In this document: one piece after another, positions 43,961 through 62,072 of the stretch | How positions within the stretch are numbered: position 1 is the stretch's first letter | Layout: each line of letters opens with the position of its first letter | Assembly: GCA_963768615.1 (NCBI GenBank) | Contig: CAVYIE010000004.1 | Span: 624,406 to 688,405 of the forward strand | Direction of reading: 5' to 3' | DNA: 64,000 nucleotides | From: Candidatus Eiseniibacteriota bacterium | GTDB lineage: Bacteria > Eisenbacteria > RBG-16-71-46 > JABDJR01 | The notes under the pieces: generated by a model | What the model was told of the DNA's origin: nothing | The model's input: the letters and a program-made list of their open reading frames with translations, nothing else | The model's database searches: none | Position numbers and translations under genes: made by a program

Positions 43961-44190
43961 GAGGATCCTCCGCCAAGCCCAGGGGATAGACGCTGCCCCC
44001 GGGGGCGGCCCCGGGGCCGCCCTTCACGGGGGGGAGGGCGGCCGTGCGCCCGGAAGGAGCCCGAGCAGTATAGCCGACGGGCCGGGGGAGCAAAAGGAAC
44101 CGGCCCCGTGGGGGGGGCCGGTTCGAGGTCTGCCGCGGGGGGCGCCGGGCCGATCGGGGGGCGGAGGGAGGTTCGGAGCCTCCGCCGGGA

Positions 44191-44808
44191 TCAGTCCTTG
44201 ACGCTGCTGGCGAGCAGGGAACGCACCTCGGGGGCGACCATCTCGGAGCGGGTCACCAGGAGCAGGCGCAGCTCGTCGGCGCCGACGTTCCGGATGACCT
44301 GGTCCTTCTGGGCCTTCACGAAGATGGAATCTCCCGGATCCACCACGTAGTTGTCGCCCTGGATCTGGACCTCGCACTTCCCGCGCAGCACGTAGAGGAA
44401 GTACTCGTCCGGCACGCTCGGCCGGGGGTTCAGCCGCAGCTCGCCCGAGGCCAGCTCCAGGAACAGTACGTTGAAGGCGCCGGAGTTGGAGCGCGCGGTC
44501 AGGACCTCGACCGAGACGTTCTCCTGGGTGTTGAGGACCTTGCGCCCCTTGCCCTTGCGGACCAGCTCGACCTCCTTCATGCGCTCGTCCTCGAAGAACT
44601 CGGTCATGGGGACGTTGAGGGCCTGGGCGATCCGGTGCAGGGTGGCCAGGGAGGGGGACGAAACCCCGCGCTCGATGGTCGAGATCTGGCCGTTGGTGAT
44701 GCCGACCTGCTGGGCCAGCTCCAACTGGGTCAGGTTCTGCTCCTTGCGCAGTTTGCGGAGCTTCTGGCCCAGATACATCATGTGAACTCTCTCGTCATTC
44801 GTGTACAT
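44191..44808 (-). CDS. XRE-family HTH plus cupin transcriptional regulator
   Basis: LRKLRKEQNLTQLELA...ISTIERGVSSPSLATL; cupin EYFLYVLRG; start may be 44781-44808. Confidence 0.9.
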   Translation of the reverse strand: MYTNDERVHMMYLGQKLRKLRKEQNLTQLELAQQVGITNGQISTIERGVSSPSLATLHRIAQALNVPMTEFFEDERMKEVELVRKGKGRKVLNTQENVSVEVLTARSNSGAFNVLFLELASGELRLNPRPSVPDEYFLYVLRGKCEVQIQGDNYVVDPGDSIFVKAQKDQVIRNVGADELRLLLVTRSEMVAPEVRSLLASSVKD

Positions 44809-44898
44809 CGCGTTTCTCCGTAGCAGCCCGTTGCCAAGTCCGGGGGAAAAGGGCCCGACCGACCCTTGCTCCTACATGTAGAACCATCCCTCCTATAT

Positions 44899-44913
44899 TC
44901 ATATTCCGTGCCA
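44899..44913 (-). promoter_or_regulatory. Candidate variant sigma54 promoter for the XRE regulator
   Basis: TGGCACG-GAAT-ATGA: perfect -24 element, -12 GC replaced by GA. Confidence 0.4.
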
Positions 44914-45018
44914 ACTTCGGAGGGGGTCTGCAAGAAACAGTAACCAGCTTTGAGACAAAGAATTACAAAAGACGAGGATCGAGTGGACTATGAACCTGGA
45001 CAATCGAGATTGAAAGAT

Positions 45019-46374
45019 TCATGAGGAAGGCGAGGAAGTTTCTTTCAAGCCGTATTCCCGGATCTTCTTGCGCAGGGTGGGGCGCGAGACCCCCAGCACC
45101 TCGCAGGCGCGCCCCTGGTGCCACCCCACCGCGTCCAGAACCCGGTGCACGTGTTCGGCCTCCACCTCCTGCAGGCTCCGGAGCGGCGAGGGATGGGGCG
45201 ACTCGGTGAGGAGGGCTTCCTCCAGGCTCTTGGAGGGGAGTTCCAGCACCTCCCCCTTGCTCAGCACCACCGCCCGGGTGAGGACGTTCTCCAGTTCCCG
45301 GACGTTTCCCCGCCAGTCGTAGCGGACCAGCTGGGCCATGGTGTCGTCGGGGATCTTGTAGACCTCCTTGTGCACCTCGGTGTTGATCTTCTGGAGGAAG
45401 TGCTCGACCAGGAGGGGTATGTCCTCCCTCCGTTCCCGCAGCGGCGGCACGTGCACGGTGATGACCTTGAGGCGGTAGTAGAGGTCCTCGCGGAAGTTCC
45501 CGGCCGCGACCAGCGCCTCCAGGTTCCGGTTGGTGGCGGTCACCACCCGGGCATCGGTGTGCAGCACGTCGCTCCCCCCCACCCGGGTGAACTCCCGCTC
45601 CTGGAGTACCCGCAGGACCTTGGTCTGGAGGTTGGGCGACATGTCGCCGATCTCGTCCAGGAACATGGTGCCCTTGCCGGCCAGCTCGAACTTCCCCGGC
45701 TTGCGGTAGCTGGCCCCGGTGAAGGCCCCCTTCTCGTGGCCGAAGAGCTCGCTCTCCAGCAGGGTGTCCACGATGGCCGAGCAGTTGACCGAGATGAAGG
45801 GCTCGGCGGGGGAGGCGTTGGCGTGGATGGCGTGGGCCACCAGCTCCTTGCCGGTTCCGCTCTCGCCGGTGATGAGGACGGTGGTGTTGCTGGAGGAGAC
45901 CACCCCGATGGTCTTGTAGATCTCCAGCATCGGCTTGCTCTTGCCCACCAGCACGTGCTGCTTCACCGGCTCGCTGCGTTCGGCCTGGAGCCGGGACACG
46001 GCCTGGGTGAGCCGGCGGTTCTCCCGGGCCTTGTTGACCACGATCTCCAGCTTCTCGGGATCGAAGGGCTTGTCGATGTAGTCGAAGGCCCCGTGCTGCA
46101 TGGCCGCCACCGTGGTTTCCATGTCCTGGTAGGCGGTGATCATGATCACGTAGGCGTCGGCGTCCATGCGCCGGATCTCGCTCAGGACCTCGAGGCCGGT
46201 CCCGTCGGGAAGCCGCACGTCGCAGATCACGTAGTTCGGTTTGACCTCCTGGAACAACCGCAGACCCTCGGCCTTGGAGAGGGCGGTGTGGGTCTCGAAG
46301 TTCTTGCTCCGGAAGAACAGGGAGAGCTCCCGGCAGAGGTTGGTCTCGTCGTCGATGATCAGCAGGCGTTCCAT
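45019..46374 (-). CDS. NtrC-family sigma54-dependent response regulator
   Basis: Receiver domain (IDDE, CDVRLP), [14 protein letters not shown], Fis-type HTH. Confidence 0.95.
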
Positions 46375-46375
46375 G

Positions 46376-47527
46376 TCAGGCCTCATCGATCGGGGTCTCG
46401 GGCAGCCGGAGCGTCACCGTGGTTCCCCGTCCGGGAGTGGACTCCAGGTTCACCGTACCCCCGTGGAGGATCATGATCCTCTGCACGTTGGACAATCCCA
46501 GGCCGAGCTGCTGGGACGTGGTCGAGAAGAAGGGCTCGAAGACCCGGGCCTGGAGGTGGGGGGCGACGCCCGGCCCGTTGTCCCGCACCTCGACCAGCCA
46601 GTGGGTGCCCGCGGGGGCCGGCTGTCGCTTGACCACCACGTGCACCTCCCCCTTGTTCTCCATGGCCTCGGAGGCGTTCTGGACCACCTGGCTCACCGCC
46701 TGGGCGAACTGGCCGGGGTCGAGACGCAGCCGGGGCCCCGTCCGGGGGAACTGGCGGAAGAGGGCCACCGACTTCAGGGCCAGGGTGGGGCGCACGTCCT
46801 CGAGGCCCCGGTTGATGACCTCGATCAGGTTCAGGTTCTCGAAGCGCGGCTTGGGGGGGCGGGCGTAGTTGACCAGGGTGCGCAGGAAGAGCTCGATGCG
46901 GTTGGTCTCCTCCCGGGCGATGGAGAAATGGAGCGCCTCGTCCCCGACCGGGTCCCGTCCGTCCTCGAGCATGTAGAGGCTCATCTTGATCGCGGACAGG
47001 TGGTTCCGGATCTCGTGGGCCATGTTGTGGGCGATGAGGCCGAGGGTTCCGAGCTTCTCCTCGGCCACCAGCCGCTGCTGGAAGGCCCGCTGCTCGGTGA
47101 TGTCCCGGGCCACCCACACCAGCATGGGCGGCCCCCCCGACCGGCTCTGGAGGAGGGTGGTCTCCAGGAAGACCGGGAAGCTCGAGCCGTCCTTGCGGAA
47201 CCCGGTGCTCTCCCCCTTCCACCCTCCCCGCCCCGCTTCCCGGAGCAGGGCCTTGAATTCCCGGGGCTCCAGGGTGGGGCCGTTCAGGATCTCGATGCTC
47301 TGCCCGATGAGTTCCCCCAGTTCGTAGCCGAGGGCGTTGATGATGCGCCGGTTGACGTAGAGCAGCCGGCCCTCCAGGTCGGTGGCGGCGATGCCGACCG
47401 GGACCCCCTCCATGATCAGGAAGAGGTCCTCCACCTCCCGAGAGAGGGGGGCGTCCGGGCGGACTCTGGACCGGGAAAGTTGTTTTCCAATGGCCGGCCT
47501 TTCGGGCTCCGATGGAGCGAATTCCAA
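46376..47527 (-). CDS. Cytoplasmic PAS sensor histidine kinase (start uncertain)
   Basis: PAS domain (LLYVN), H-box AHEIRN, DNGPG, FEPFFST and GLGLS motifs; no TM segment seen. Confidence 0.9.
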   Translation of the reverse strand: MEFAPSEPERPAIGKQLSRSRVRPDAPLSREVEDLFLIMEGVPVGIAATDLEGRLLYVNRRIINALGYELGELIGQSIEILNGPTLEPREFKALLREAGRGGWKGESTGFRKDGSSFPVFLETTLLQSRSGGPPMLVWVARDITEQRAFQQRLVAEEKLGTLGLIAHNMAHEIRNHLSAIKMSLYMLEDGRDPVGDEALHFSIAREETNRIELFLRTLVNYARPPKPRFENLNLIEVINRGLEDVRPTLALKSVALFRQFPRTGPRLRLDPGQFAQAVSQVVQNASEAMENKGEVHVVVKRQPAPAGTHWLVEVRDNGPGVAPHLQARVFEPFFSTTSQQLGLGLSNVQRIMILHGGTVNLESTPGRGTTVTLRLPETPIDEA

Positions 47528-47612
47528 TATCGTCCTAAAGATAGAGGGGCGAAGTTGGATTCTTCAAGGCAAAGCGTGACCGGCGAGGGGGGGAGCCGGG
47601 AGGCGGGGGGGG

Positions 47613-47804
47613 TCAGCTCTGGGGCGGGGTGGGGTCGGCCACCACCGGCGCCGGGGCGTAGCCCGCATAGGCGGGGCAGTTCCGACGGATCGGGCAGCTG
47701 GGCGGACCCTGGGTCATGGGACAGGACCCCACCACCCGGTTGTGATGGCGGCAGTAGAAGGAATGAACCGGGGTGTCGGCGCCGCTCCGCTTGAACTTGA
47801 ACAT
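47613..47804 (-). CDS. 63-aa Cys/His-rich small protein
   Basis: MFKFKRSGADTPVHSFYCRHHNRVVGSCPMTQGPPSCPIRRNCPAYAGYAPAPVVADPTPPQS; GGAGG RBS; high GC3; lies just downstream of a sigma54 site. Confidence 0.7.
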   Translation of the reverse strand: MFKFKRSGADTPVHSFYCRHHNRVVGSCPMTQGPPSCPIRRNCPAYAGYAPAPVVADPTPPQS

Positions 47805-47852
47805 GCCCGTCGTGCCTCCGCCTGGATGCTGGTGGGTGATGCCCCCCTTCAA

Positions 47853-47868
47853 TGCAACTTGCGTGCCG
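47853..47868 (-). promoter_or_regulatory. sigma54 promoter
   Basis: CGGCACG-CAAG-TTGCA on the minus strand. Confidence 0.85.
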
Positions 47869-48095
47869 ACGCCGGGTTGAGGGATCGAGGCCGGGGCCGG
47901 CCGCCGTGCGGGATCGGGTAAGCGGCCGTGTCCAAAAGGGTTGTGTCCTGGGGGGCGTTCTCCGGGGCCTCGGGGGGACGGTCGGTGAGGCCGCAGTTCG
48001 CCCGGGCGGGCCGGGCAGGAATCCACCGCGGCGGCGCGAAACCACCCGATCGGGCCGGGAACGGCCCCGCCGGCGAGATTCCTCCCCGCCCCGCT

Positions 48096-48122
48096 TCAAG
48101 TCCGCCTCCGCCCCGCCGATAG
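48096..48122 (+). promoter_or_regulatory. sigma28 (FliA) promoter upstream of the MglA-like gene
   Basis: TCAAG-N14-GCCGATAG, 74 bp before ATG 48197. Confidence 0.8.
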
Positions 48123-48196
48123 ATGCACCAGAGGCGGATCCCGCCACGCGTGGATCCAGGTGAAGAGGGCTCCAGGGAACCAAGGGGGTTCGTCCC

Positions 48197-49627
48197 ATGG
48201 TCGTCGTGTCTTACTCGGGGAAAGAGATCAACGCCAAGCTGGTCTATTACGGTCCCGGACTCAGCGGGAAGACCACCAACCTCGAGTACATCTACCAGAG
48301 CGTGCCCAACAGCAACCGGGGCAAGATGGTCTCCATGAAGACCCGGACCGAGCGCACGCTCTTCTTCGACTTCCTGCCCGTGGACCTCGGGGAGATGGGC
48401 GGGTTCAAGACCCGGTTCCTTCTCTACACCGTGCCCGGCCAGGTCTATTACAACGCCACCCGGAAGCTGGTGCTCCGGGGGGTGGATGCGATCATCTTCG
48501 TGGCCGACTCCGCCCGGGGGAAGATGGACGAGAACCTCGAGTCCCTCCGGAACCTCCACGACAACCTCAAGGAGTACGGCCTTTCCCTCGACGAGATCCC
48601 CTTCGTGGTCCAGTACAACAAGCGGGACATCGAAGACGTGTACAGCGTCGAGGAACTGGAGCAGGCCCTGAACCCCACCGGGGCGCCCTACTACGAGGCG
48701 GTGGCCACCACCGGTCAGGGCGTATTCGAGACCTTCCGCGGCATCGCGCGGGTCCTGCTCCAGAAGCTCAGCAAGGAGATCAAGGTGGGCGAGGGACGCA
48801 GCCTGGAGGCGAAGTCGGCCGCGTTGGCGAGCCCGGCCGAGCCTGCGGCCCCGGGACGGAAGACGGAGGCGCCGGCCCCCGTTCCCCCCGCTCCGGCCCC
48901 CGTCGCCGAGACTCCTTCCTTTACCAAGCCGCCGCGGCCGGAGTTGGTCCGGGCCTCGGAGCCCGTTCCCGTGCCGGAGACCCAGGCGGGCCCGGTCCGG
49001 GGCGCGGAACCGGATCCGGAACCCCGGCCCGAGGCGGAAACCGAGCCCCTGGGGGCCGGGGACGGGGCCCAGGAAACCCCGGCCGAGACCCCCGCTCCGG
49101 CTCGCCGGTCCCCCTACGGACCGCCCCGCCGGCCCGCCTCGCCGCCCGCGCCGGAGCCCCGGGCTCCGGAGCCGGTCGCGGAGGAGCATGCGGAACCCGG
49201 GAAGCCCGCCCCGGCGCCGGAGGCGGTGGAGGCCCGGCCGGAACCGGCCCTCCCCAGCCCGCCCGAACCGGTGCGGGAGCCCGAGACCGTCACCGCGCAG
49301 CAAAGGACCGCCATGGCCGCACGCCCCCGACCCGACTCCGCCGCCGACCCCGAGGAGCGCCCCGGCTTCTGGGGCCGTCTCTTCGGCCGCGGGAACAAGG
49401 AAGAGCAGGGAGCCGGCGCCTCGCCGGCGACCCGGGAAGCCCGCCTGGCCCCGGTGGAGCTGCCCGCGGTGGGCGGCTCCGGGGACGCCTCCCCGGTGTT
49501 CATCGAGCGCCGGATCCAGGTCCCGATCACCCTCGGGCCCGAGGAGATGGTGCGGGGAGCGCGGCTCCGGCTGGTGCTGGAGATCCAGGTGGAGGCATCC
49601 GGCGAGTCCGGGAGCAAGGTGGCCTGA
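48197..49627 (+). CDS. mglA: MglA-family small GTPase with a long Pro/Glu/Ala-rich C-terminal extension
   Basis: EINAKLVYYGPGLSGKTTNL, RTLFFDFLP, LYTVPGQVYY and NKRD motifs; about 280-aa tail containing GFWGRLFGR. Confidence 0.9.
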   Translation: MVVVSYSGKEINAKLVYYGPGLSGKTTNLEYIYQSVPNSNRGKMVSMKTRTERTLFFDFLPVDLGEMGGFKTRFLLYTVPGQVYYNATRKLVLRGVDAIIFVADSARGKMDENLESLRNLHDNLKEYGLSLDEIPFVVQYNKRDIEDVYSVEELEQALNPTGAPYYEAVATTGQGVFETFRGIARVLLQKLSKEIKVGEGRSLEAKSAALASPAEPAAPGRKTEAPAPVPPAPAPVAETPSFTKPPRPELVRASEPVPVPETQAGPVRGAEPDPEPRPEAETEPLGAGDGAQETPAETPAPARRSPYGPPRRPASPPAPEPRAPEPVAEEHAEPGKPAPAPEAVEARPEPALPSPPEPVREPETVTAQQRTAMAARPRPDSAADPEERPGFWGRLFGRGNKEEQGAGASPATREARLAPVELPAVGGSGDASPVFIERRIQVPITLGPEEMVRGARLRLVLEIQVEASGESGSKVA

Positions 49628-49803
49628 CCGACCGCTTTCGGGACCGAAATCCCGGAGTTCGAGCCCGCCGACGGGGACCCAACCGGTCCCCGTCGGTGTA
49701 TAGAGGGACGGAACGGGGGCCGGCGCCGGTGTCCGGTTGACGGAGCCGGGACCCTCCACTACTCTTGATCCAGGTTCCGTCCAAGGCGTTCCGGAGGCCC
49801 GTC

Positions 49804-50316
49804 ATGCGCAAGTTCCAACCCCCCATCCTGGTCCTGATCGTATTCATCCTGGCCGCGGCCGGAGCGGGTCCGGTTTCGGCAGGGGTGCCCGCCTCCAATC
49901 CGCGGGCCATGGCCGGCATCTCCAGCGCCCCCTCGGTGGGGCTCCTGAACTCGGGCCTCCTGAACCTGTCCCGCTTCGACATCCACAACAGCCTGAGCTA
50001 TTCGGTGTCGTCCTCCTCCTTCGGCACCCGGTCGGCGGGACTCTGGCTCACCGAGATCGGCTACCGCGTCTCCGACCCGCTCCGGGTCTCCGTGGACGTG
50101 GGCGCCACCCTGAACCCGGCCTCGGACCAGCTCTTCAGCGAGAAGAACGTGTTCCTGCACCGGTTCGACCTCGACTACCGCCCCAGCGACAAGTTCCAGC
50201 TCAACCTCTCCTACGTGAACATGCCGCCCGACGCGGCCACCGCTCTCGGCTATCACAACTGGGGCTACTTCCCCGGCAGCCGTCCCTGGGGGTCGCCCCT
50301 GAGCGCGGGCCATTGA
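49804..50316 (+). CDS. Secreted, beta-strand-rich hypothetical protein
   Basis: Signal peptide; alternating-pattern beta strands (LSRFDIHNSLSYS...FDLDYRPSDKFQLNLSY). Confidence 0.7.
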   Translation: MRKFQPPILVLIVFILAAAGAGPVSAGVPASNPRAMAGISSAPSVGLLNSGLLNLSRFDIHNSLSYSVSSSSFGTRSAGLWLTEIGYRVSDPLRVSVDVGATLNPASDQLFSEKNVFLHRFDLDYRPSDKFQLNLSYVNMPPDAATALGYHNWGYFPGSRPWGSPLSAGH

Positions 50317-57226: not shown

Positions 57227-58420
57227 ATGTCCGACACCCCGACGCCCGTTCCGGGCCTGGCCAAGTCCACCCTCATCCGGGAGCTGGTGGACCTCTCCCG
57301 GTTCACCGAGGGCATCCTCCGCACCATGGGCTCGGCGGTGGTGGCCATGGACGCCGCGGGCCGGGTGGCCTACGTGAACCCGGCCGCGGAGTCCCTGCTC
57401 GACCGCCCCGCCTCCGCCCTGCTCAACCGCCCCGCCGACGAGGTCCTGGTCACCCGGAGCGGGAGCAGCCTGGTCGGGGACGCTCCCGAGGAGGCGGCGG
57501 GGGAGGTGGACCTGAAGCTCCACGACGGGCGGCTGGTCACCGTGGAGGCCCGCATCTCCCATCACCAGGGGAAGAACGGCGAGGAGGAGGGGGTGGTGGC
57601 CATCCTCACCGACCGCACCGACGTGAAGCGGGCGGAGGAGGAATCCCGGCGGAAGGAGCGGCTGGCCTCCCTGGGCGAGCTCTCGGCCGGGGTGGCCCAC
57701 GAGATCCGCAACCCGCTGGCCGGCATCGCCGCCGGGGCCCAGCTTCTCCGCTCCCGGCTGGGGGAGGGGGACGAGCGGACCCGGCTCACCGACATGATCC
57801 TGGAGGAGTCGGCCCGCCTGGAGCGGATCGTGGAGAGCCTGCTCCAGTTCGCCCGGCCTCCCCAGCCCCGGCTCCAGGAGTCCGACCTGGCCTCGGCGGT
57901 GGCCCGCTCCCTGGACCTGGTGGCCGAGGACGCGGCCCGGCGGGGCGTGGAGGTGCGCCGCGAGCTGGCCTCCGGACTCCCCCGGCTGTGGATCGATCCC
58001 GAGCAGATGGTGCAGGTGCTCCTGAACCTGCTCCGCAACGCCGTCCAGGCCATGGACGGGGGAGGGACCCTCACCGTGGCCCTGCGCCGCGTCTCCCGGA
58101 GGGCCTACATCCGCCGGCGGGCGGGACGGCGGGACGAGGACCCCGAGCGGCTGCCCGGACGCCAGGGTCCGCTCCAGGACTGGCTGGAGATCGAGGTCAC
58201 CGACACCGGCCAGGGCATCGAGCCGGAGGCCCTGGAGCGGGTCTTCAATCCCTTCTACACCACCCGGCGGAGCGGCACCGGCCTCGGGCTCTCCATCACC
58301 CAGGCCATCGTCCAGGAACACTGTGGCATGATCTCCTGCAGCAGCGAGCCCGGCCGCGGCACCACCTTCCTGGTGGATCTGCCGGTGGAGAAGCGCCAGC
58401 GGCGCCGGCGCGGAGCCTAA
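57227..58420 (+). CDS. PAS sensor histidine kinase (NtrB/PilS-like)
   Basis: YVNPAAE PAS domain, GELSAGVAHEIRNPL, NLLRNA, DTGQG and GTGLGL motifs. Confidence 0.93.
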   Translation: MSDTPTPVPGLAKSTLIRELVDLSRFTEGILRTMGSAVVAMDAAGRVAYVNPAAESLLDRPASALLNRPADEVLVTRSGSSLVGDAPEEAAGEVDLKLHDGRLVTVEARISHHQGKNGEEEGVVAILTDRTDVKRAEEESRRKERLASLGELSAGVAHEIRNPLAGIAAGAQLLRSRLGEGDERTRLTDMILEESARLERIVESLLQFARPPQPRLQESDLASAVARSLDLVAEDAARRGVEVRRELASGLPRLWIDPEQMVQVLLNLLRNAVQAMDGGGTLTVALRRVSRRAYIRRRAGRRDEDPERLPGRQGPLQDWLEIEVTDTGQGIEPEALERVFNPFYTTRRSGTGLGLSITQAIVQEHCGMISCSSEPGRGTTFLVDLPVEKRQRRRRGA

Positions 58421-58435
58421 CCCGATGAGGATTCG

Positions 58436-59857
58436 ATGAGCGGCCCCGAACGATCCCCGGAAAGCCGTCCCTACGGCGTCCTGGTGGTGGACGACGAACG
58501 CACCCTGCGCTTCACCCTGGCCGAGAGCCTGCGCGACGAGGGCTACCGGGCCTGGGAGGCGGCGGACGGGAGCGAGGCCTTCGCCGCCCTGCGGGAGCAG
58601 AGCGTGGACGTGGTGCTCCTGGACATGCGCCTGCAGGAATCGGGGGAGAACGGCCTCGTCATCCTGAAGAGCATCAAGAAGGACTACCCCGAGGTCGAGG
58701 TGGTGATGATGACCGCCTACGGCCAGTTCGACCACGCGGTGGAGGCGACCAAGTCCGGCTGCTTCCAGTTCGTGGGCAAGCCCTTCCAGCTCGACCAGAT
58801 CAAGCTGGTGGTGCGGGGGGCGCTGGAGAACGCGTCCCTGCGCCGCGAGGTGGAGGTGCTGCGCCGGGGGAGCCGGGGCCGGTTCCCGTTGGACCAGGTG
58901 GTGGTGGACAGCCGGGCCATGGCCGATGTGCTGGCCACGGTGGAGAAGGTGGCCCGGAGCCGGGCCACCGTCCTCCTCACCGGGGAGACGGGGAGCGGCA
59001 AGGAGGTGGTGGCGCGCGCGGTGCACCGGGCCTCGGACGTGGCCGGGGGCCCCTTCGTGGCCGTCAACTGCAGCGCGGTGCCCGAGAACCTCCTGGAGTC
59101 CGAGCTCTTCGGCTACGAGAAGGGCGCCTTCACCGACGCCAAGAACCGCAAGAAGGGGATGTTCGAGCTCGCCGACCACGGCACCCTGTTCCTGGACGAG
59201 ATCGGGGACATGGCGGCGGGGGTCCAGGCCAAGCTCCTCCGGGTGCTGGAGACCGGCACCTTCAAGCGCCTGGGCGGCACCGGGGACATCCAGGTCGAGG
59301 TGCGGGTGGTGGCCGCCACCAACAAGGACCTCAAGGCCGAGGTGGCCGGGAACCGCTTCCGCGAGGATCTCTACTACCGGCTGGCCGTGGTGCCCATCCG
59401 CATTCCTCCCCTGCGGGAACGGACCGAGGCCGTGCTCCCCCTGGCCCGGTTCTTCCTGGACCACCTGAACCGGGAGATGGGCCGGAGCGTGGAGGGGTTC
59501 ACCCCCGAGGCGGAGCGGGCCCTGACCGCCTACGCCTGGCCGGGCAACGTGCGCGAGCTCCGGAACGTGGTCGAGCGCGCGCTCCTTCTCTCCTCCGGGA
59601 ACCGGATCGAACCCTCGGCCCTCTCCCTGGAGGTGCTGGGAACGGATCCCGCCCCGGACCGGAGCGGCGGGGAACTCCCCCCCGACTCCGGGGCCTGGTC
59701 CCTGGCCGACGCCGAGCGCTACGCCATCCGCATGGCCCTGCGCCGCTTCGAGGGGAACAAGACCCGGGCCGCCGAGGCCCTGGGCGTCTCCCGGCAGACC
59801 CTGCGGGCCAAGGTCAAGGACTACGGCCTGGACGAGGGGGCCGGCGCCGGGGACTAG
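58436..59857 (+). CDS. NtrC-family sigma54-dependent response regulator
   Basis: Receiver domain, GETGSGKE, GAFTDA, WPGNVREL, Fis HTH. Confidence 0.95.
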   Translation: MSGPERSPESRPYGVLVVDDERTLRFTLAESLRDEGYRAWEAADGSEAFAALREQSVDVVLLDMRLQESGENGLVILKSIKKDYPEVEVVMMTAYGQFDHAVEATKSGCFQFVGKPFQLDQIKLVVRGALENASLRREVEVLRRGSRGRFPLDQVVVDSRAMADVLATVEKVARSRATVLLTGETGSGKEVVARAVHRASDVAGGPFVAVNCSAVPENLLESELFGYEKGAFTDAKNRKKGMFELADHGTLFLDEIGDMAAGVQAKLLRVLETGTFKRLGGTGDIQVEVRVVAATNKDLKAEVAGNRFREDLYYRLAVVPIRIPPLRERTEAVLPLARFFLDHLNREMGRSVEGFTPEAERALTAYAWPGNVRELRNVVERALLLSSGNRIEPSALSLEVLGTDPAPDRSGGELPPDSGAWSLADAERYAIRMALRRFEGNKTRAAEALGVSRQTLRAKVKDYGLDEGAGAGD

Positions 59858-60110: not shown

Positions 60111-60126
60111 TGGCCCCGCTCTTGCA
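60111..60126 (+). promoter_or_regulatory. sigma54 promoter for flhG-fliA
   Basis: TGGCCCC-GCTC-TTGCA, correct GG-N10-GC spacing. Confidence 0.8.
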
Positions 60127-60231: not shown

Positions 60232-61218
60232 GTGGGGGACGCACCGGTGAACGGACGGGACGGATTCGGAACGCGGGACGGGATCGCGGTGGGGCCCAGG
60301 CCGCGGCTCAAGCTGGTGCCGGGGGGACGGCCCGGCCTCGAGACGCCCCGCCCCCGGAGCCTGGCTCCGCTGCGCACCCTGGCCCTGGCCAGCGGCAAGG
60401 GCGGCGTGGGCAAGACCAGCCTCGCCGTGAACCTGGCCCTGGCCCTGGCCGATCTCCGCCAGCGGGTGCTGGTGGTGGACGGCGACCTGGGCCTGGGGAA
60501 GCTGGACCTGCTCATCGGGGCCACCCCGACGCTGCATCTCGGCCACGTCCTGGCCGGGGAGTGCGACATCCTGGATGCGGTGATCACCGGCCCCCGCGGG
60601 GTCCGGTTCCTGCCCGGCGCCTGCGGCGAGGGTTCCCTGGCCGTGCTGGATCCTCTTCGGCGCCGCCGGCTCCTCGAGAGCCTGGATCGCTTCCGGGGCG
60701 CGGTGGACCTGGTCATCCTGGACCTGGCCACCGGGATCGGACCCAACGCCCTGGAGCTCGCCCGCGGCGCGGACGAGGTGGGCGTGGTCACCACCCCCGA
60801 GCCCACCGCCTACGCCGACGCCTACGCCCTGATCAAGCTTCTCTCCGGACGCGGTTCGCTGCCGCCCCGGATCGTGGTCAACCGGACCCGCGACGAGGAG
60901 GAGGGCCGCGAGACCTTCCTCCGCATCTCCACCACCGCCAAGCGGCACCTCGGGGTGTCCCCGACCTTCTGGGGCGCCATTCCCGAGGACGCGGCGGTGC
61001 AGGACGCGGTCCGCGGCCAGCTTCCCTTCACCCTGAGCGCGCCGGACGCCCCGGCCAGCCGCCACGTGCGGGAGCTGGCCTGGCGGATCGTGCGGGGCCG
61101 GCACCCCGACGGGGGGAACCGTGTTCCCGCGGCGGGGTTCGCCCCGTCCCCGGCCGCTCCCGGATCGCTCCGGCGGAGTGCCGCCGCCGGTGGACCGCCG
61201 CTGCCCGAGGCGGCCTGA
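60232..61218 (+). CDS. flhG: FlhG/FleN-type MinD-like ATPase (start 60232 or 60247)
   Basis: ASGKGGVGKT deviant Walker A, DGDLGLGKLD and TTPEPTAYADAYALIK motifs; adjacent to fliA. Confidence 0.88.
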   Translation: MGDAPVNGRDGFGTRDGIAVGPRPRLKLVPGGRPGLETPRPRSLAPLRTLALASGKGGVGKTSLAVNLALALADLRQRVLVVDGDLGLGKLDLLIGATPTLHLGHVLAGECDILDAVITGPRGVRFLPGACGEGSLAVLDPLRRRRLLESLDRFRGAVDLVILDLATGIGPNALELARGADEVGVVTTPEPTAYADAYALIKLLSGRGSLPPRIVVNRTRDEEEGRETFLRISTTAKRHLGVSPTFWGAIPEDAAVQDAVRGQLPFTLSAPDAPASRHVRELAWRIVRGRHPDGGNRVPAAGFAPSPAAPGSLRRSAAAGGPPLPEAA

Positions 61219-61258
61219 ACCCGTGACCTCACCGACTACCCGAAGGAGACCCACCGAC

Positions 61259-62032
61259 ATGGCCACGCAGCGCATCGCCACCCGCACCACGCCCGATCTT
61301 CCCGCCAAGCCGGGAAGCTGGAGCAAGCCGTCCAAGGACGAGGCCTACCGCCGCTATGCCCCGCTCATGAAGTACGTGGTGGACCGCGTGGCCTCCAACG
61401 TGCCCAAGTACGTGGAACGGGACGACCTGCTCAACGCCGCCGCCCTGGGGCTGTTCGATGCCCTGGAGAAGTACGACAGCGGCAAGGGAACCAAGTTCGA
61501 AACCTACGCGGTGTGGCGGATCCGGGGCGCGGTGCTGGACGAGCTGCGGGCCATGGACTGGGCCAGCCGTTCGGTGCGGCGCAAGGCGCGCCACGTGGAC
61601 ACCCTCACCCGGGACCTGGACCAGCGTCTGGGCCGGGCGGCCAGCGACGACGAGCTGGCCGAGGCCATGGAGATCTCCTCCACCGAGATGGCCCGGGTGC
61701 TGGAGGAGGTGCGCGGAGTGGTGCTCCTCTCCCTCAACCAGTCCCCCAACGACACCGAGGAAGGCCATTCGGGCGGCCTGGCCGAGGTGATCGAGGATCC
61801 CAACACCGAGGACGCCCTGGACGAGATCGAGAAGCAGCAGCTCTCCGAGGTGCTGGTGGACGTGATCAGCGATCTCTCCGAGCAGGAGAAGCTGGTGCTC
61901 GCCCTCTACTACTACGAGGAGATGACCTTGAAGGAGATCGGCCAGACCCTGGGCATCTCCGAGAGCCGGGTCTCCCAGATCCACACCAAGGCGATCTCCC
62001 GCCTCCGGGGGCGGATGCGGCGCGCCGCCTGA
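61259..62032 (+). CDS. fliA: FliA/WhiG-family sigma factor (sigma28)
   Basis: DDLLNAAALGL, KFETYAVWRIRGAVLDELRAMDWASRSVR and LKEIGQTLGISESRVSQIH motifs. Confidence 0.95.
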   Translation: MATQRIATRTTPDLPAKPGSWSKPSKDEAYRRYAPLMKYVVDRVASNVPKYVERDDLLNAAALGLFDALEKYDSGKGTKFETYAVWRIRGAVLDELRAMDWASRSVRRKARHVDTLTRDLDQRLGRAASDDELAEAMEISSTEMARVLEEVRGVVLLSLNQSPNDTEEGHSGGLAEVIEDPNTEDALDEIEKQQLSEVLVDVISDLSEQEKLVLALYYYEEMTLKEIGQTLGISESRVSQIHTKAISRLRGRMRRAA

Positions 62033-62056: not shown

Positions 62057-62072
62057 CGGCACGGCCCTTGCA
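62057..62072 (+). promoter_or_regulatory. sigma54 promoter for the GAF/GGDEF-like gene
   Basis: CGGCACG-GCCC-TTGCA, 24 bp after the fliA stop. Confidence 0.85.

Follow-up and report, generated by a model that had tools for sequence, protein, structure and literature searches.

A conserved four-cysteine microprotein gene with a sigma54-type promoter, usually beside a PAS kinase/NtrC pair, in Eisenbacteria

Sigma54-dependent targets are usual among the genes that lie beside their enhancer-binding protein. ZraP and PspA are small accessory proteins made as sigma54 or two-component outputs next to their regulators (ZraSR and PspF respectively), and Sda and FixT are small inhibitors of the kinases KinA and FixL. 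The WhiB-like (Wbl) proteins of Actinobacteria and their phages (PF02467) bind a [4Fe-4S] cluster and contact region 4 of the principal sigma factor, and their C-P-(V/I/L)-R-x-x-C-x-A stretch wraps the cluster. Here, a basic protein of 63 aa with four cysteines is compared with these systems. It is encoded in a 64,000-nucleotide stretch of a Candidatus Eiseniibacteriota genome (assembly GCA_963768615.1, contig CAVYIE010000004.1, positions 624,406 to 688,405), referred to below as the window. The reading favoured here is that the gene is a sigma54-dependent output of the adjacent pair of soluble PAS histidine kinase and NtrC-type activator and that its product is a basic Cys4 adaptor with an iron-sulfur (Fe-S) or other metal centre; judged from sequence, we place the probability of this reading as a whole at about one half.

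The layout of the locus resembles that of the ZraP- and PspA-type outputs, with a short gene under its own regulated promoter beside the kinase/activator pair presumed to control it. By analogy, the product could plausibly feed back on the sensor. No sequence similarity to ZraP, PspA, Sda or FixT was detected with Pfam and NCBIfam, and the proteins also differ in location and build. ZraP resides in the periplasm, and PspA is a large protein of the coiled-coil type that associates with the inner membrane. The Cys4 microprotein, by contrast, lacks a signal peptide and is predicted, like the kinase, to be cytoplasmic. The locus also differs from the ZraP, PspA, Sda and FixT systems in that some lineages have no adjacent kinase/activator pair.

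The microprotein coding sequence (47613..47804, reverse strand) starts at the ATG at 47804 and ends with the TGA at 47613, giving the product MFKFKRSGADTPVHSFYCRHHNRVVGSCPMTQGPPSCPIRRNCPAYAGYAPAPVVADPTPPQS with cysteines at residues 18, 28, 37 and 43 and histidines at residues 14, 20 and 21. GC content at the third codon positions (GC3) is 0.89, against 0.59 and 0.60 at the first and second positions (hypergeometric p = 2.5e-5). The periodic coding signal in the sliding GC profile begins with the ATG and ends with the stop codon, and the antisense frame that shares the same third positions is interrupted by stop codons. A Shine–Dalgarno GGAGG lies at 47819..47815 (reverse strand) with the ATG 10 nt further on, and a ribosome-binding site (RBS) of the GGAG(G) type is found 4–10 nt ahead of the start codon at all orthologous loci. 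The high GC3 and the GGAGG site, together with a near-consensus sigma54 site, had been pointed out in an initial annotation made from the DNA alone, and all three withstand closer inspection. An upstream in-frame extension to a GTG at 48026 shows no third-position GC bias (0.80/0.68/0.68 for the three codon positions), and the ATG at 47804 was therefore taken as the true start. The corresponding 137-aa version was discarded, as it lacks the GC3 bias, would span the sigma54 site and begins ahead of the homologues, which start at the ATG.

Purifying selection on the microprotein is clear. The ratio of nonsynonymous to synonymous substitution rates (dN/dS; NG86 method) over the 30-codon core was 0.03–0.44 at a synonymous rate (dS) of about 1 in the six loci with DNA that were compared, and the full-length ratio was 0.29 for the two closest pairs. 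Between the window and its closest orthologue, locus L001, DNA identity is 67 % across the open reading frame (ORF) and 46–53 % in the intergenic DNA on both sides. L001 belongs to a Candidatus Eisenbacteria metagenome-assembled genome that was recovered only by a contig scan with the kinase, and it carries an orthologous ORF of 65 aa. No paralogue of the microprotein was found within the 64-kb window by tblastn or by a search of the six frames with the hidden Markov model of the family. Rfam gave no match to the microprotein gene over 44000–50000, the sole hit being a sub-threshold chance match within the activator gene. The interval 47804..47613 on the reverse strand is thus a genuine, conserved protein-coding gene.

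Beside the window protein, 32 further distinct homologues of 53–75 aa were collected by phmmer and profile searches. The phmmer search, run against 1.84 billion representatives, returned 20 other proteins, all of 54–73 aa, and two profile searches brought additional homologue clusters. Their source labels are unnamed or ‘hypothetical protein’, and look-ups of other members led to metagenome contigs with a matching neighbourhood. The single sequence retrieved far less: a word-indexed search with the microprotein alone returned the query itself and nothing else, an exact sequence look-up gave no record, genome and metagenome contigs, pattern-scanned with the microprotein, yielded no match, and neither did phage records searched by tblastn. 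Pfam and NCBIfam hold nothing for the microprotein at E <= 0.1, in agreement with the earlier statement that it matches no recognised family. Searches of the literature on Eisenbacteria combined with sigma54 or MglA, and on WhiB-like proteins outside Actinobacteria, found nothing relevant. On the sequences collected, this is an unnamed small-protein family, so far known from Eisenbacteria-type contigs only.

The pattern FYC-x9/10-C-x8-C-x5-C is kept in all 33 distinct sequences, and all 33 carry a net basic charge. Residues F16, Y17, C18, R19, N22, C28, C37, C43 and A45 are invariant in the alignments of 22 and 32 sequences; P29, P38 and R40 are nearly invariant in the 32-row alignment, as is G33 in the 22-row alignment (A2). 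The resulting Cys4 core reads FYC18R-x2-N-x5-C28P-x7-C37P(L/I/V)R-x2-C43PA, in which three of the four invariant cysteines are followed by proline. The first 15 residues and everything beyond C43-P-A vary freely, as do the three histidines and the proline-rich tail. The residues listed in the initial annotation are therefore correct for the window protein, while the histidines and the tail are not features of the family. Conservation, on which that annotation had staked the ORF, is found both in the four cysteines (33/33) and in the core dN/dS.

Two variants of the core were observed. A fifth cysteine replaces Arg23 (FYCRRENCLVGRCP) at loci L026 (6001–6171) and L028 (6001–6162) and in relatives P0017, P0019, P0023, P0026–P0028, P0030 and P0031, and it is possible that this cysteine is an alternative or extra ligand. 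Members encoded at L031 (6001–6186) and L036 (488–655), and also P0013, P0005 and P0014, form a subtype, from lineages without a neighbouring kinase and activator, in which the Gly33-Pro34 that is elsewhere conserved between Cys28 and Cys37 is replaced (CPRxExxxxCPLRLxCPAF).

Candidates for the identity of the product were also set aside on these data. A precursor of a ribosomally synthesized and post-translationally modified peptide, or a secreted peptide, was discarded given the lack of a signal peptide and of modification genes nearby and the spread of conservation over the core, and a metallothionein was discarded given that only four cysteines are conserved in the family.

The putative sigma54 promoter was defined by the -24 GG and -12 GC elements at 10-nt spacing and scored against the consensus TGGCACG-N4-TTGCW, which has 12 specified positions. 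The window site, CGGCACGCAAGTTGCA at 47868..47853 (reverse strand), reads cGGCACG-N4-TTGCA and agrees with 11 of the 12 positions; it lies 48 nt from the ATG, and transcription would be expected to start near 47843. The 64 kb of the window contain two copies of the GGCAYG-N4-TTGC core where 0.27 would be expected, and 4 of 100 shuffles reach that count. Thirteen distinct loci were compared, 12 of them with DNA, and the core is present at all 12, 16–52 nt ahead of the microprotein start codon, within intergenic DNA that is unalignable between loci. The conserved predicted sigma54 promoter and the RBS belong to the microprotein gene itself.

A candidate upstream activator site of low confidence, CCGCGGTGGAT at 48021..48032 (reverse strand), emerged from a MAFFT alignment of ten intergenic regions. 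It belongs to a CCAC..ACCGGTGGAT block of loose conservation. The block is situated between the two divergent promoters, some 150 nt further upstream than the sigma54 site, and is carried by the kinase-less loci too. The 9-mer of the candidate site is frequent in the GC-rich window, and its support is thus position-specific conservation alone. An activator may bind at this block.

Downstream of the microprotein, 10 of the 13 loci encode a PAS kinase, an NtrC-type activator and an XRE-cupin regulator. For the closest orthologue, L001, identities to the window proteins are 68 % (kinase), 83 % (activator), 94 % (XRE-cupin) and 89 % (the divergent GTPase described below). In the remaining three loci the microprotein gene and the sigma54 promoter are kept with no adjacent kinase or activator: at L034 the microprotein is followed directly by the XRE-cupin gene, and at L031/L032 and L036 it is followed by a beta-helix lipoprotein gene, with kinase, activator and XRE-cupin all absent. 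In the window, the beta-helix lipoprotein gene lies beyond the XRE-cupin gene. The microprotein and its promoter can therefore exist without an adjacent kinase or activator, and the neighbour found at every locus is not the kinase but a divergent MglA-like GTPase gene.

The kinase of the window (46376..47527, reverse strand) is a soluble PAS-HisKA-HATPase histidine kinase with orthologues at 42–68 % identity. Its Pfam matches are HATPase_c (7e-25), PAS (1e-11) and HisKA (5.8e-6; 26.7 bits, slightly below the cut-off of 26.9 bits), and it contains no hydrophobic segment. The adjoining response regulator (45019..46386, reverse strand; orthologues at 69–83 % identity) is a sigma54 activator of the NtrC family with REC, AAA+ and HTH_8 domains (Response_reg 1e-26, Sigma54_activat 4e-66, HTH_8 6e-11) and a GAFTGA motif at residue 220. 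The domain make-up of the two proteins fits an NtrB/NtrC-type two-component system, and, as initially described, the microprotein gene precedes the genes for the soluble PAS kinase and the GAFTGA activator in the same orientation.

It was also proposed that the microprotein heads the operon of this pair, and this is doubtful, both from the three loci without an adjacent pair and from the DNA ahead of the kinase. The kinase ORF is listed from a TTG at 47527, yet the composition of its first 30 codons is that of non-coding DNA, and the GC3 signal sets in only at about 47440 (GTG at 47437); the real gap between microprotein and kinase is therefore about 170 nt (47438–47612) rather than 85. Within this gap the GC content falls to about 50 %, against 72 % for the genome. 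A regular-expression scan identified a candidate sigma70-type promoter, TTGAAG-N18-TATCTT, at 47538..47567 (reverse strand), with equivalents ahead of the kinase at L001 (TTGAAT-17-TATTCT), L035 (TTGATC-17-TATCGT), L047 (TTGAAA-17-TATGTT) and L050 (TTGTGT-17-TATATT), and one ahead of the XRE-cupin gene at L034 (TTGAAA-18-TAAGAT). A scan for intrinsic terminators over 47300–48300 found none, and read-through from the sigma54 promoter is thus possible. A palindrome, GGAAA-ACAAC-TTTCC, lies right ahead of the kinase coding signal (47474..47488, reverse strand) as a possible operator; the window, L001, L026 and L035 all carry the form GGAAA-N5-TTTCC, near-matches to it occur at L028, L030 and L047, and it is conserved as DNA, given that the reading frame is not constant. 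A C-rich, G-poor tract right behind the microprotein stop codon (47612–47575) could be a Rho loading site.

The closest described likeness in sequence is to the Wbl proteins. In a profile search of PDB sequences WhiB7 (7kug/7kif) came first, below threshold (E 0.13–0.16), with gCPlRreCpA of the family aligned on SCPIRRQCLA. Both families are small and cytoplasmic, have four invariant cysteines and share C-P-(V/I/L)-R-x-x-C-(L/P)-x-A with an identical C-x5-C spacing. The overall spacing differs, being C-x(n)-C-x2-C-x5-C in Wbl and C-x9/10-C-x8-C-x5-C in the microprotein family, which has (G)PxxC in place of CxxC, and hhalign places the conserved Pro34 opposite the first cysteine of the WhiB CxxC. 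The cysteines span 25 residues rather than about 37. The G(V/I)WGG turn, present in the phage WhiB alignment (A3), and the basic C-terminal tail are missing, and the microprotein family, unlike Wbl, is not actinobacterial and has a sigma54 promoter. Only 3 of 22 members touch the Pfam Whib model weakly (best E 0.08), and the window protein has no match to it at E <= 10. With the family below the Pfam threshold, lacking CxxC, the GxWGG turn and a conserved basic tail, and with a shorter cysteine span, membership of PF02467 was therefore rejected.

Mycobacterial helicase-nuclease chains of the UvrD/REP type (6ppu, 6ppj) also gave weak matches (E 2–8), which fall on their C-terminal cluster region. 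AddB/AdnAB/Cas4-type nucleases with a C-x2-C-x5-C Fe-S ‘staple’ are alike over the C-P-x-R-x-x-C stretch, but there the staple is a domain within proteins of more than 700 residues, whereas the microprotein family has no CxxC, and the matches are not significant. Two further assignments were tried and failed. A zinc ribbon or rubredoxin type is contradicted by the lack of CxxC or CPxCG in the conserved core of any member and of a Pfam match. Identity with FlgM, MglB or RomX fails for want of any Pfam or NCBIfam match at E <= 0.1 for the window protein and at E <= 10 across the alignment.

Four invariant cysteines, three of them followed by proline, within a 30-residue core imply one metal centre, and the microprotein probably holds a metal or iron-sulfur centre. 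The metal- or redox-binding property proposed in the initial annotation is thus a reasonable reading of the four cysteines, although the histidines form no conserved part of it. We ranked an Fe-S cluster above structural zinc since the stretch shared with Wbl is the part that wraps the cluster there, and since the core combines three Cys-Pro pairs and the WhiB-mimicking C37-P-(L/I/V)-R-x-x-C43-(P)-A with the lack of a CxxC knuckle.

Under the favoured reading, transcription of the microprotein gene would require an active sigma54 enhancer-binding protein. The likeliest candidate in most genomes is the NtrC-type regulator whose gene lies a short way downstream and which the soluble PAS kinase would phosphorylate. 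The pair itself probably runs from its own basal sigma70-type promoter in the low-GC gap of about 170 nt, which would make the microprotein a regulated output and not simply the first cistron. The 30-residue core would fold around a single metal centre with the four invariant cysteines as ligands, preferably an Fe-S cluster rather than structural zinc. The product would be a small adaptor whose binding to a protein partner, drawn from the signalling and transcription circuit around it, depends on metal or redox state, and it would thus work like a small redox switch. Candidate partners are the PAS kinase, the activator, the XRE-cupin protein, FliA or RNA polymerase, and the MglA-like GTPase. 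The regulatory part of the earlier interpretation is on this reading largely right, and is better phrased as a sigma54-dependent output that usually, but not always, lies beside a kinase/activator pair.

Several observations weigh against this reading. The link between activator and promoter rests on adjacency, and the window contains a further PAS kinase/NtrC pair at a distance of 10 kb (57227–59857; NtrC-type gene 58436–59857), while three lineages have no adjacent pair. A stricter consensus scanner called no sigma70 promoter in 47300–48300. The sequencing runs that hold the region are DNA metagenomes only, with no RNA run among them to speak for expression. For the metal centre, hhalign against six annotated actinophage WhiB proteins gave a probability of 41 % over 18 columns, the AlphaFold2 models had confidence scores (pLDDT) of 54.6 with the 22-row and 57.7 with the 32-row alignment, too low to use, and Foldseek against the PDB gave nothing significant (best E 3.2).

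The divergent gene (48197..49627, forward strand) encodes an MglA-like small GTPase (Pfam Ras/Arf/Gtr1) with a long tail rich in Pro, Ala and Glu. It is divergent, and its product 80–96 % identical, in all DNA-bearing loci tested by tblastn, and L047, L050 and the locus without DNA have a divergent gene in the equivalent position. Ahead of it in the window lies a sigma28-type promoter, TCAAG-N14-GCCGATAG, at 48096..48122 (forward strand). The element TCAAG-N14-GCCGATA (reverse complement TATCGG-N13-17-YTTGA) is present ahead of the GTPase gene at 11 of the 12 loci with DNA, namely the window, L001, L026, L028, L030, L031, L033, L036, L037, L047 and L050. A sigma factor of the FliA/WhiG type is encoded at 61121–62032 (TIGR02479, 257 bits against a cut-off of 190). 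The conserved element and this sigma factor gene together suggest that the small GTPase gene is sigma28-dependent.

Other explanations assign the microprotein a narrower or different role. As put forward in the initial annotation, it could modulate the adjacent PAS kinase in an autoregulatory loop: dedicated to this task, it would be induced by the pair, bind the kinase and tune its autophosphorylation according to metal or redox state, in the manner of Sda on KinA or FixT on FixL. Soluble kinases with small induced inhibitors are well known, the microprotein gene is co-oriented with and immediately upstream of the kinase at 10 of 13 loci, and the sigma54 promoter adjoins the gene for a sigma54 activator; however, three lineages keep the microprotein and the promoter with no adjacent kinase or activator, and the core, except for the Gly-Pro loop, is at least as well conserved there. 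We regard this role as unlikely, though it is the foremost of the alternatives. Behind it we would rank, as rather improbable, structural zinc on the four cysteines of a tiny basic protein that binds nucleic acid or associates with the ribosome or RNA and has no redox role. Cys4 sites of very small basic proteins often hold zinc, all 33 members are net basic, and the AlphaFold2 model suggests a beta-hairpin followed by short helices, but its confidence is too low to use, no zinc-finger family is matched, and the CxxC/CPxCG knuckle that usually marks zinc ribbons, rubredoxins and treble clefts is missing.

A partner in the divergent circuit is less probable again. Here the microprotein would act on the MglA-like GTPase, beside which no MglB gene lies, or on sigma28 or RNA polymerase, and would couple the sigma54 signal to the sigma28-driven GTPase gene. 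Conserved divergent pairs often tie a regulator to its target, the GTPase gene is a neighbour at every locus with the sigma28-type promoter at nearly all of them, and the FliA/WhiG gene lies 13 kb off behind another sigma54-type site. Set against this, the argument is one of synteny alone, in a narrow clade in which about 10 kb of gene order is conserved anyway, and the protein does not resemble FlgM, MglB, RomX or a GTPase regulator of any kind. The top Foldseek matches, CRIB peptides bound to Cdc42/Rac, had E values above 3 with a poor model and were discarded as meaningless. A bolder version, which we hold to be a long shot, makes the protein a miniature non-actinobacterial counterpart of WhiB, a sigma54-induced [4Fe-4S] microprotein that would dock on sigma28/FliA, the housekeeping sigma factor or the MglA-like GTPase and wire a redox or O2/NO signal into a cascade from sigma54 through sigma28 to the small GTPase. 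The least probable of all, at very long odds, is that the ORF is untranslated and that the conserved stretch serves the kinase operon as a 5' leader or regulatory RNA. The ORF is short, in a GC-rich genome full of spurious ORFs, and no RNA run holds the region; yet the strong GC3 bias is confined to it, its amino acids are conserved through synonymous change with core dN/dS down to 0.03, its RBS and start codon are conserved, Rfam has no match, and it is kept where no kinase follows.

Small proteins routinely escape annotation, and this family is unnamed in Pfam and NCBIfam, while its regulatory signature is unusually clean, with the sigma54 promoter conserved at every locus for which there is DNA. 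At 63 residues, the microprotein is a well-defined and easily synthesised target whose metal content, redox behaviour and partners could be quickly determined. Were it an Fe-S switch with transcription or a Ras-like GTPase as its target, the WhiB-type principle would reach beyond Actinobacteria, and there would be a first functional entry point to the signalling of Eisenbacteria, which as a phylum are known from metagenomes only and have no cultured member. If it were a structural zinc peptide, it would still define a new family and a validated member of the sigma54 regulon for Eisenbacteria.

Further features of the neighbourhood concern the XRE-cupin gene and other sigma54-type sites. The XRE-type helix-turn-helix and cupin regulator (44191..44808, reverse strand; Pfam) forms a separate unit, 210 nt past the activator gene, and is the best conserved protein of the cluster, with 94 % identity to its L001 counterpart and 77–85 % to the others. 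It may functionally belong with the microprotein; its L034 counterpart, directly after the microprotein gene, is at 1295–1807. The second sigma54 core in the window, a perfect one (GGCACGGCCCTTGC, 62058–62071, forward strand), is intergenic: it comes right behind the FliA-type gene and precedes the gene that follows. Another site, a weaker one (TGGCCCCGCTCTTGCA, 60111–60126, forward strand), lies ahead of a gene for a MinD/FlhG-like ATPase, and both sites come after the second PAS kinase/NtrC pair.

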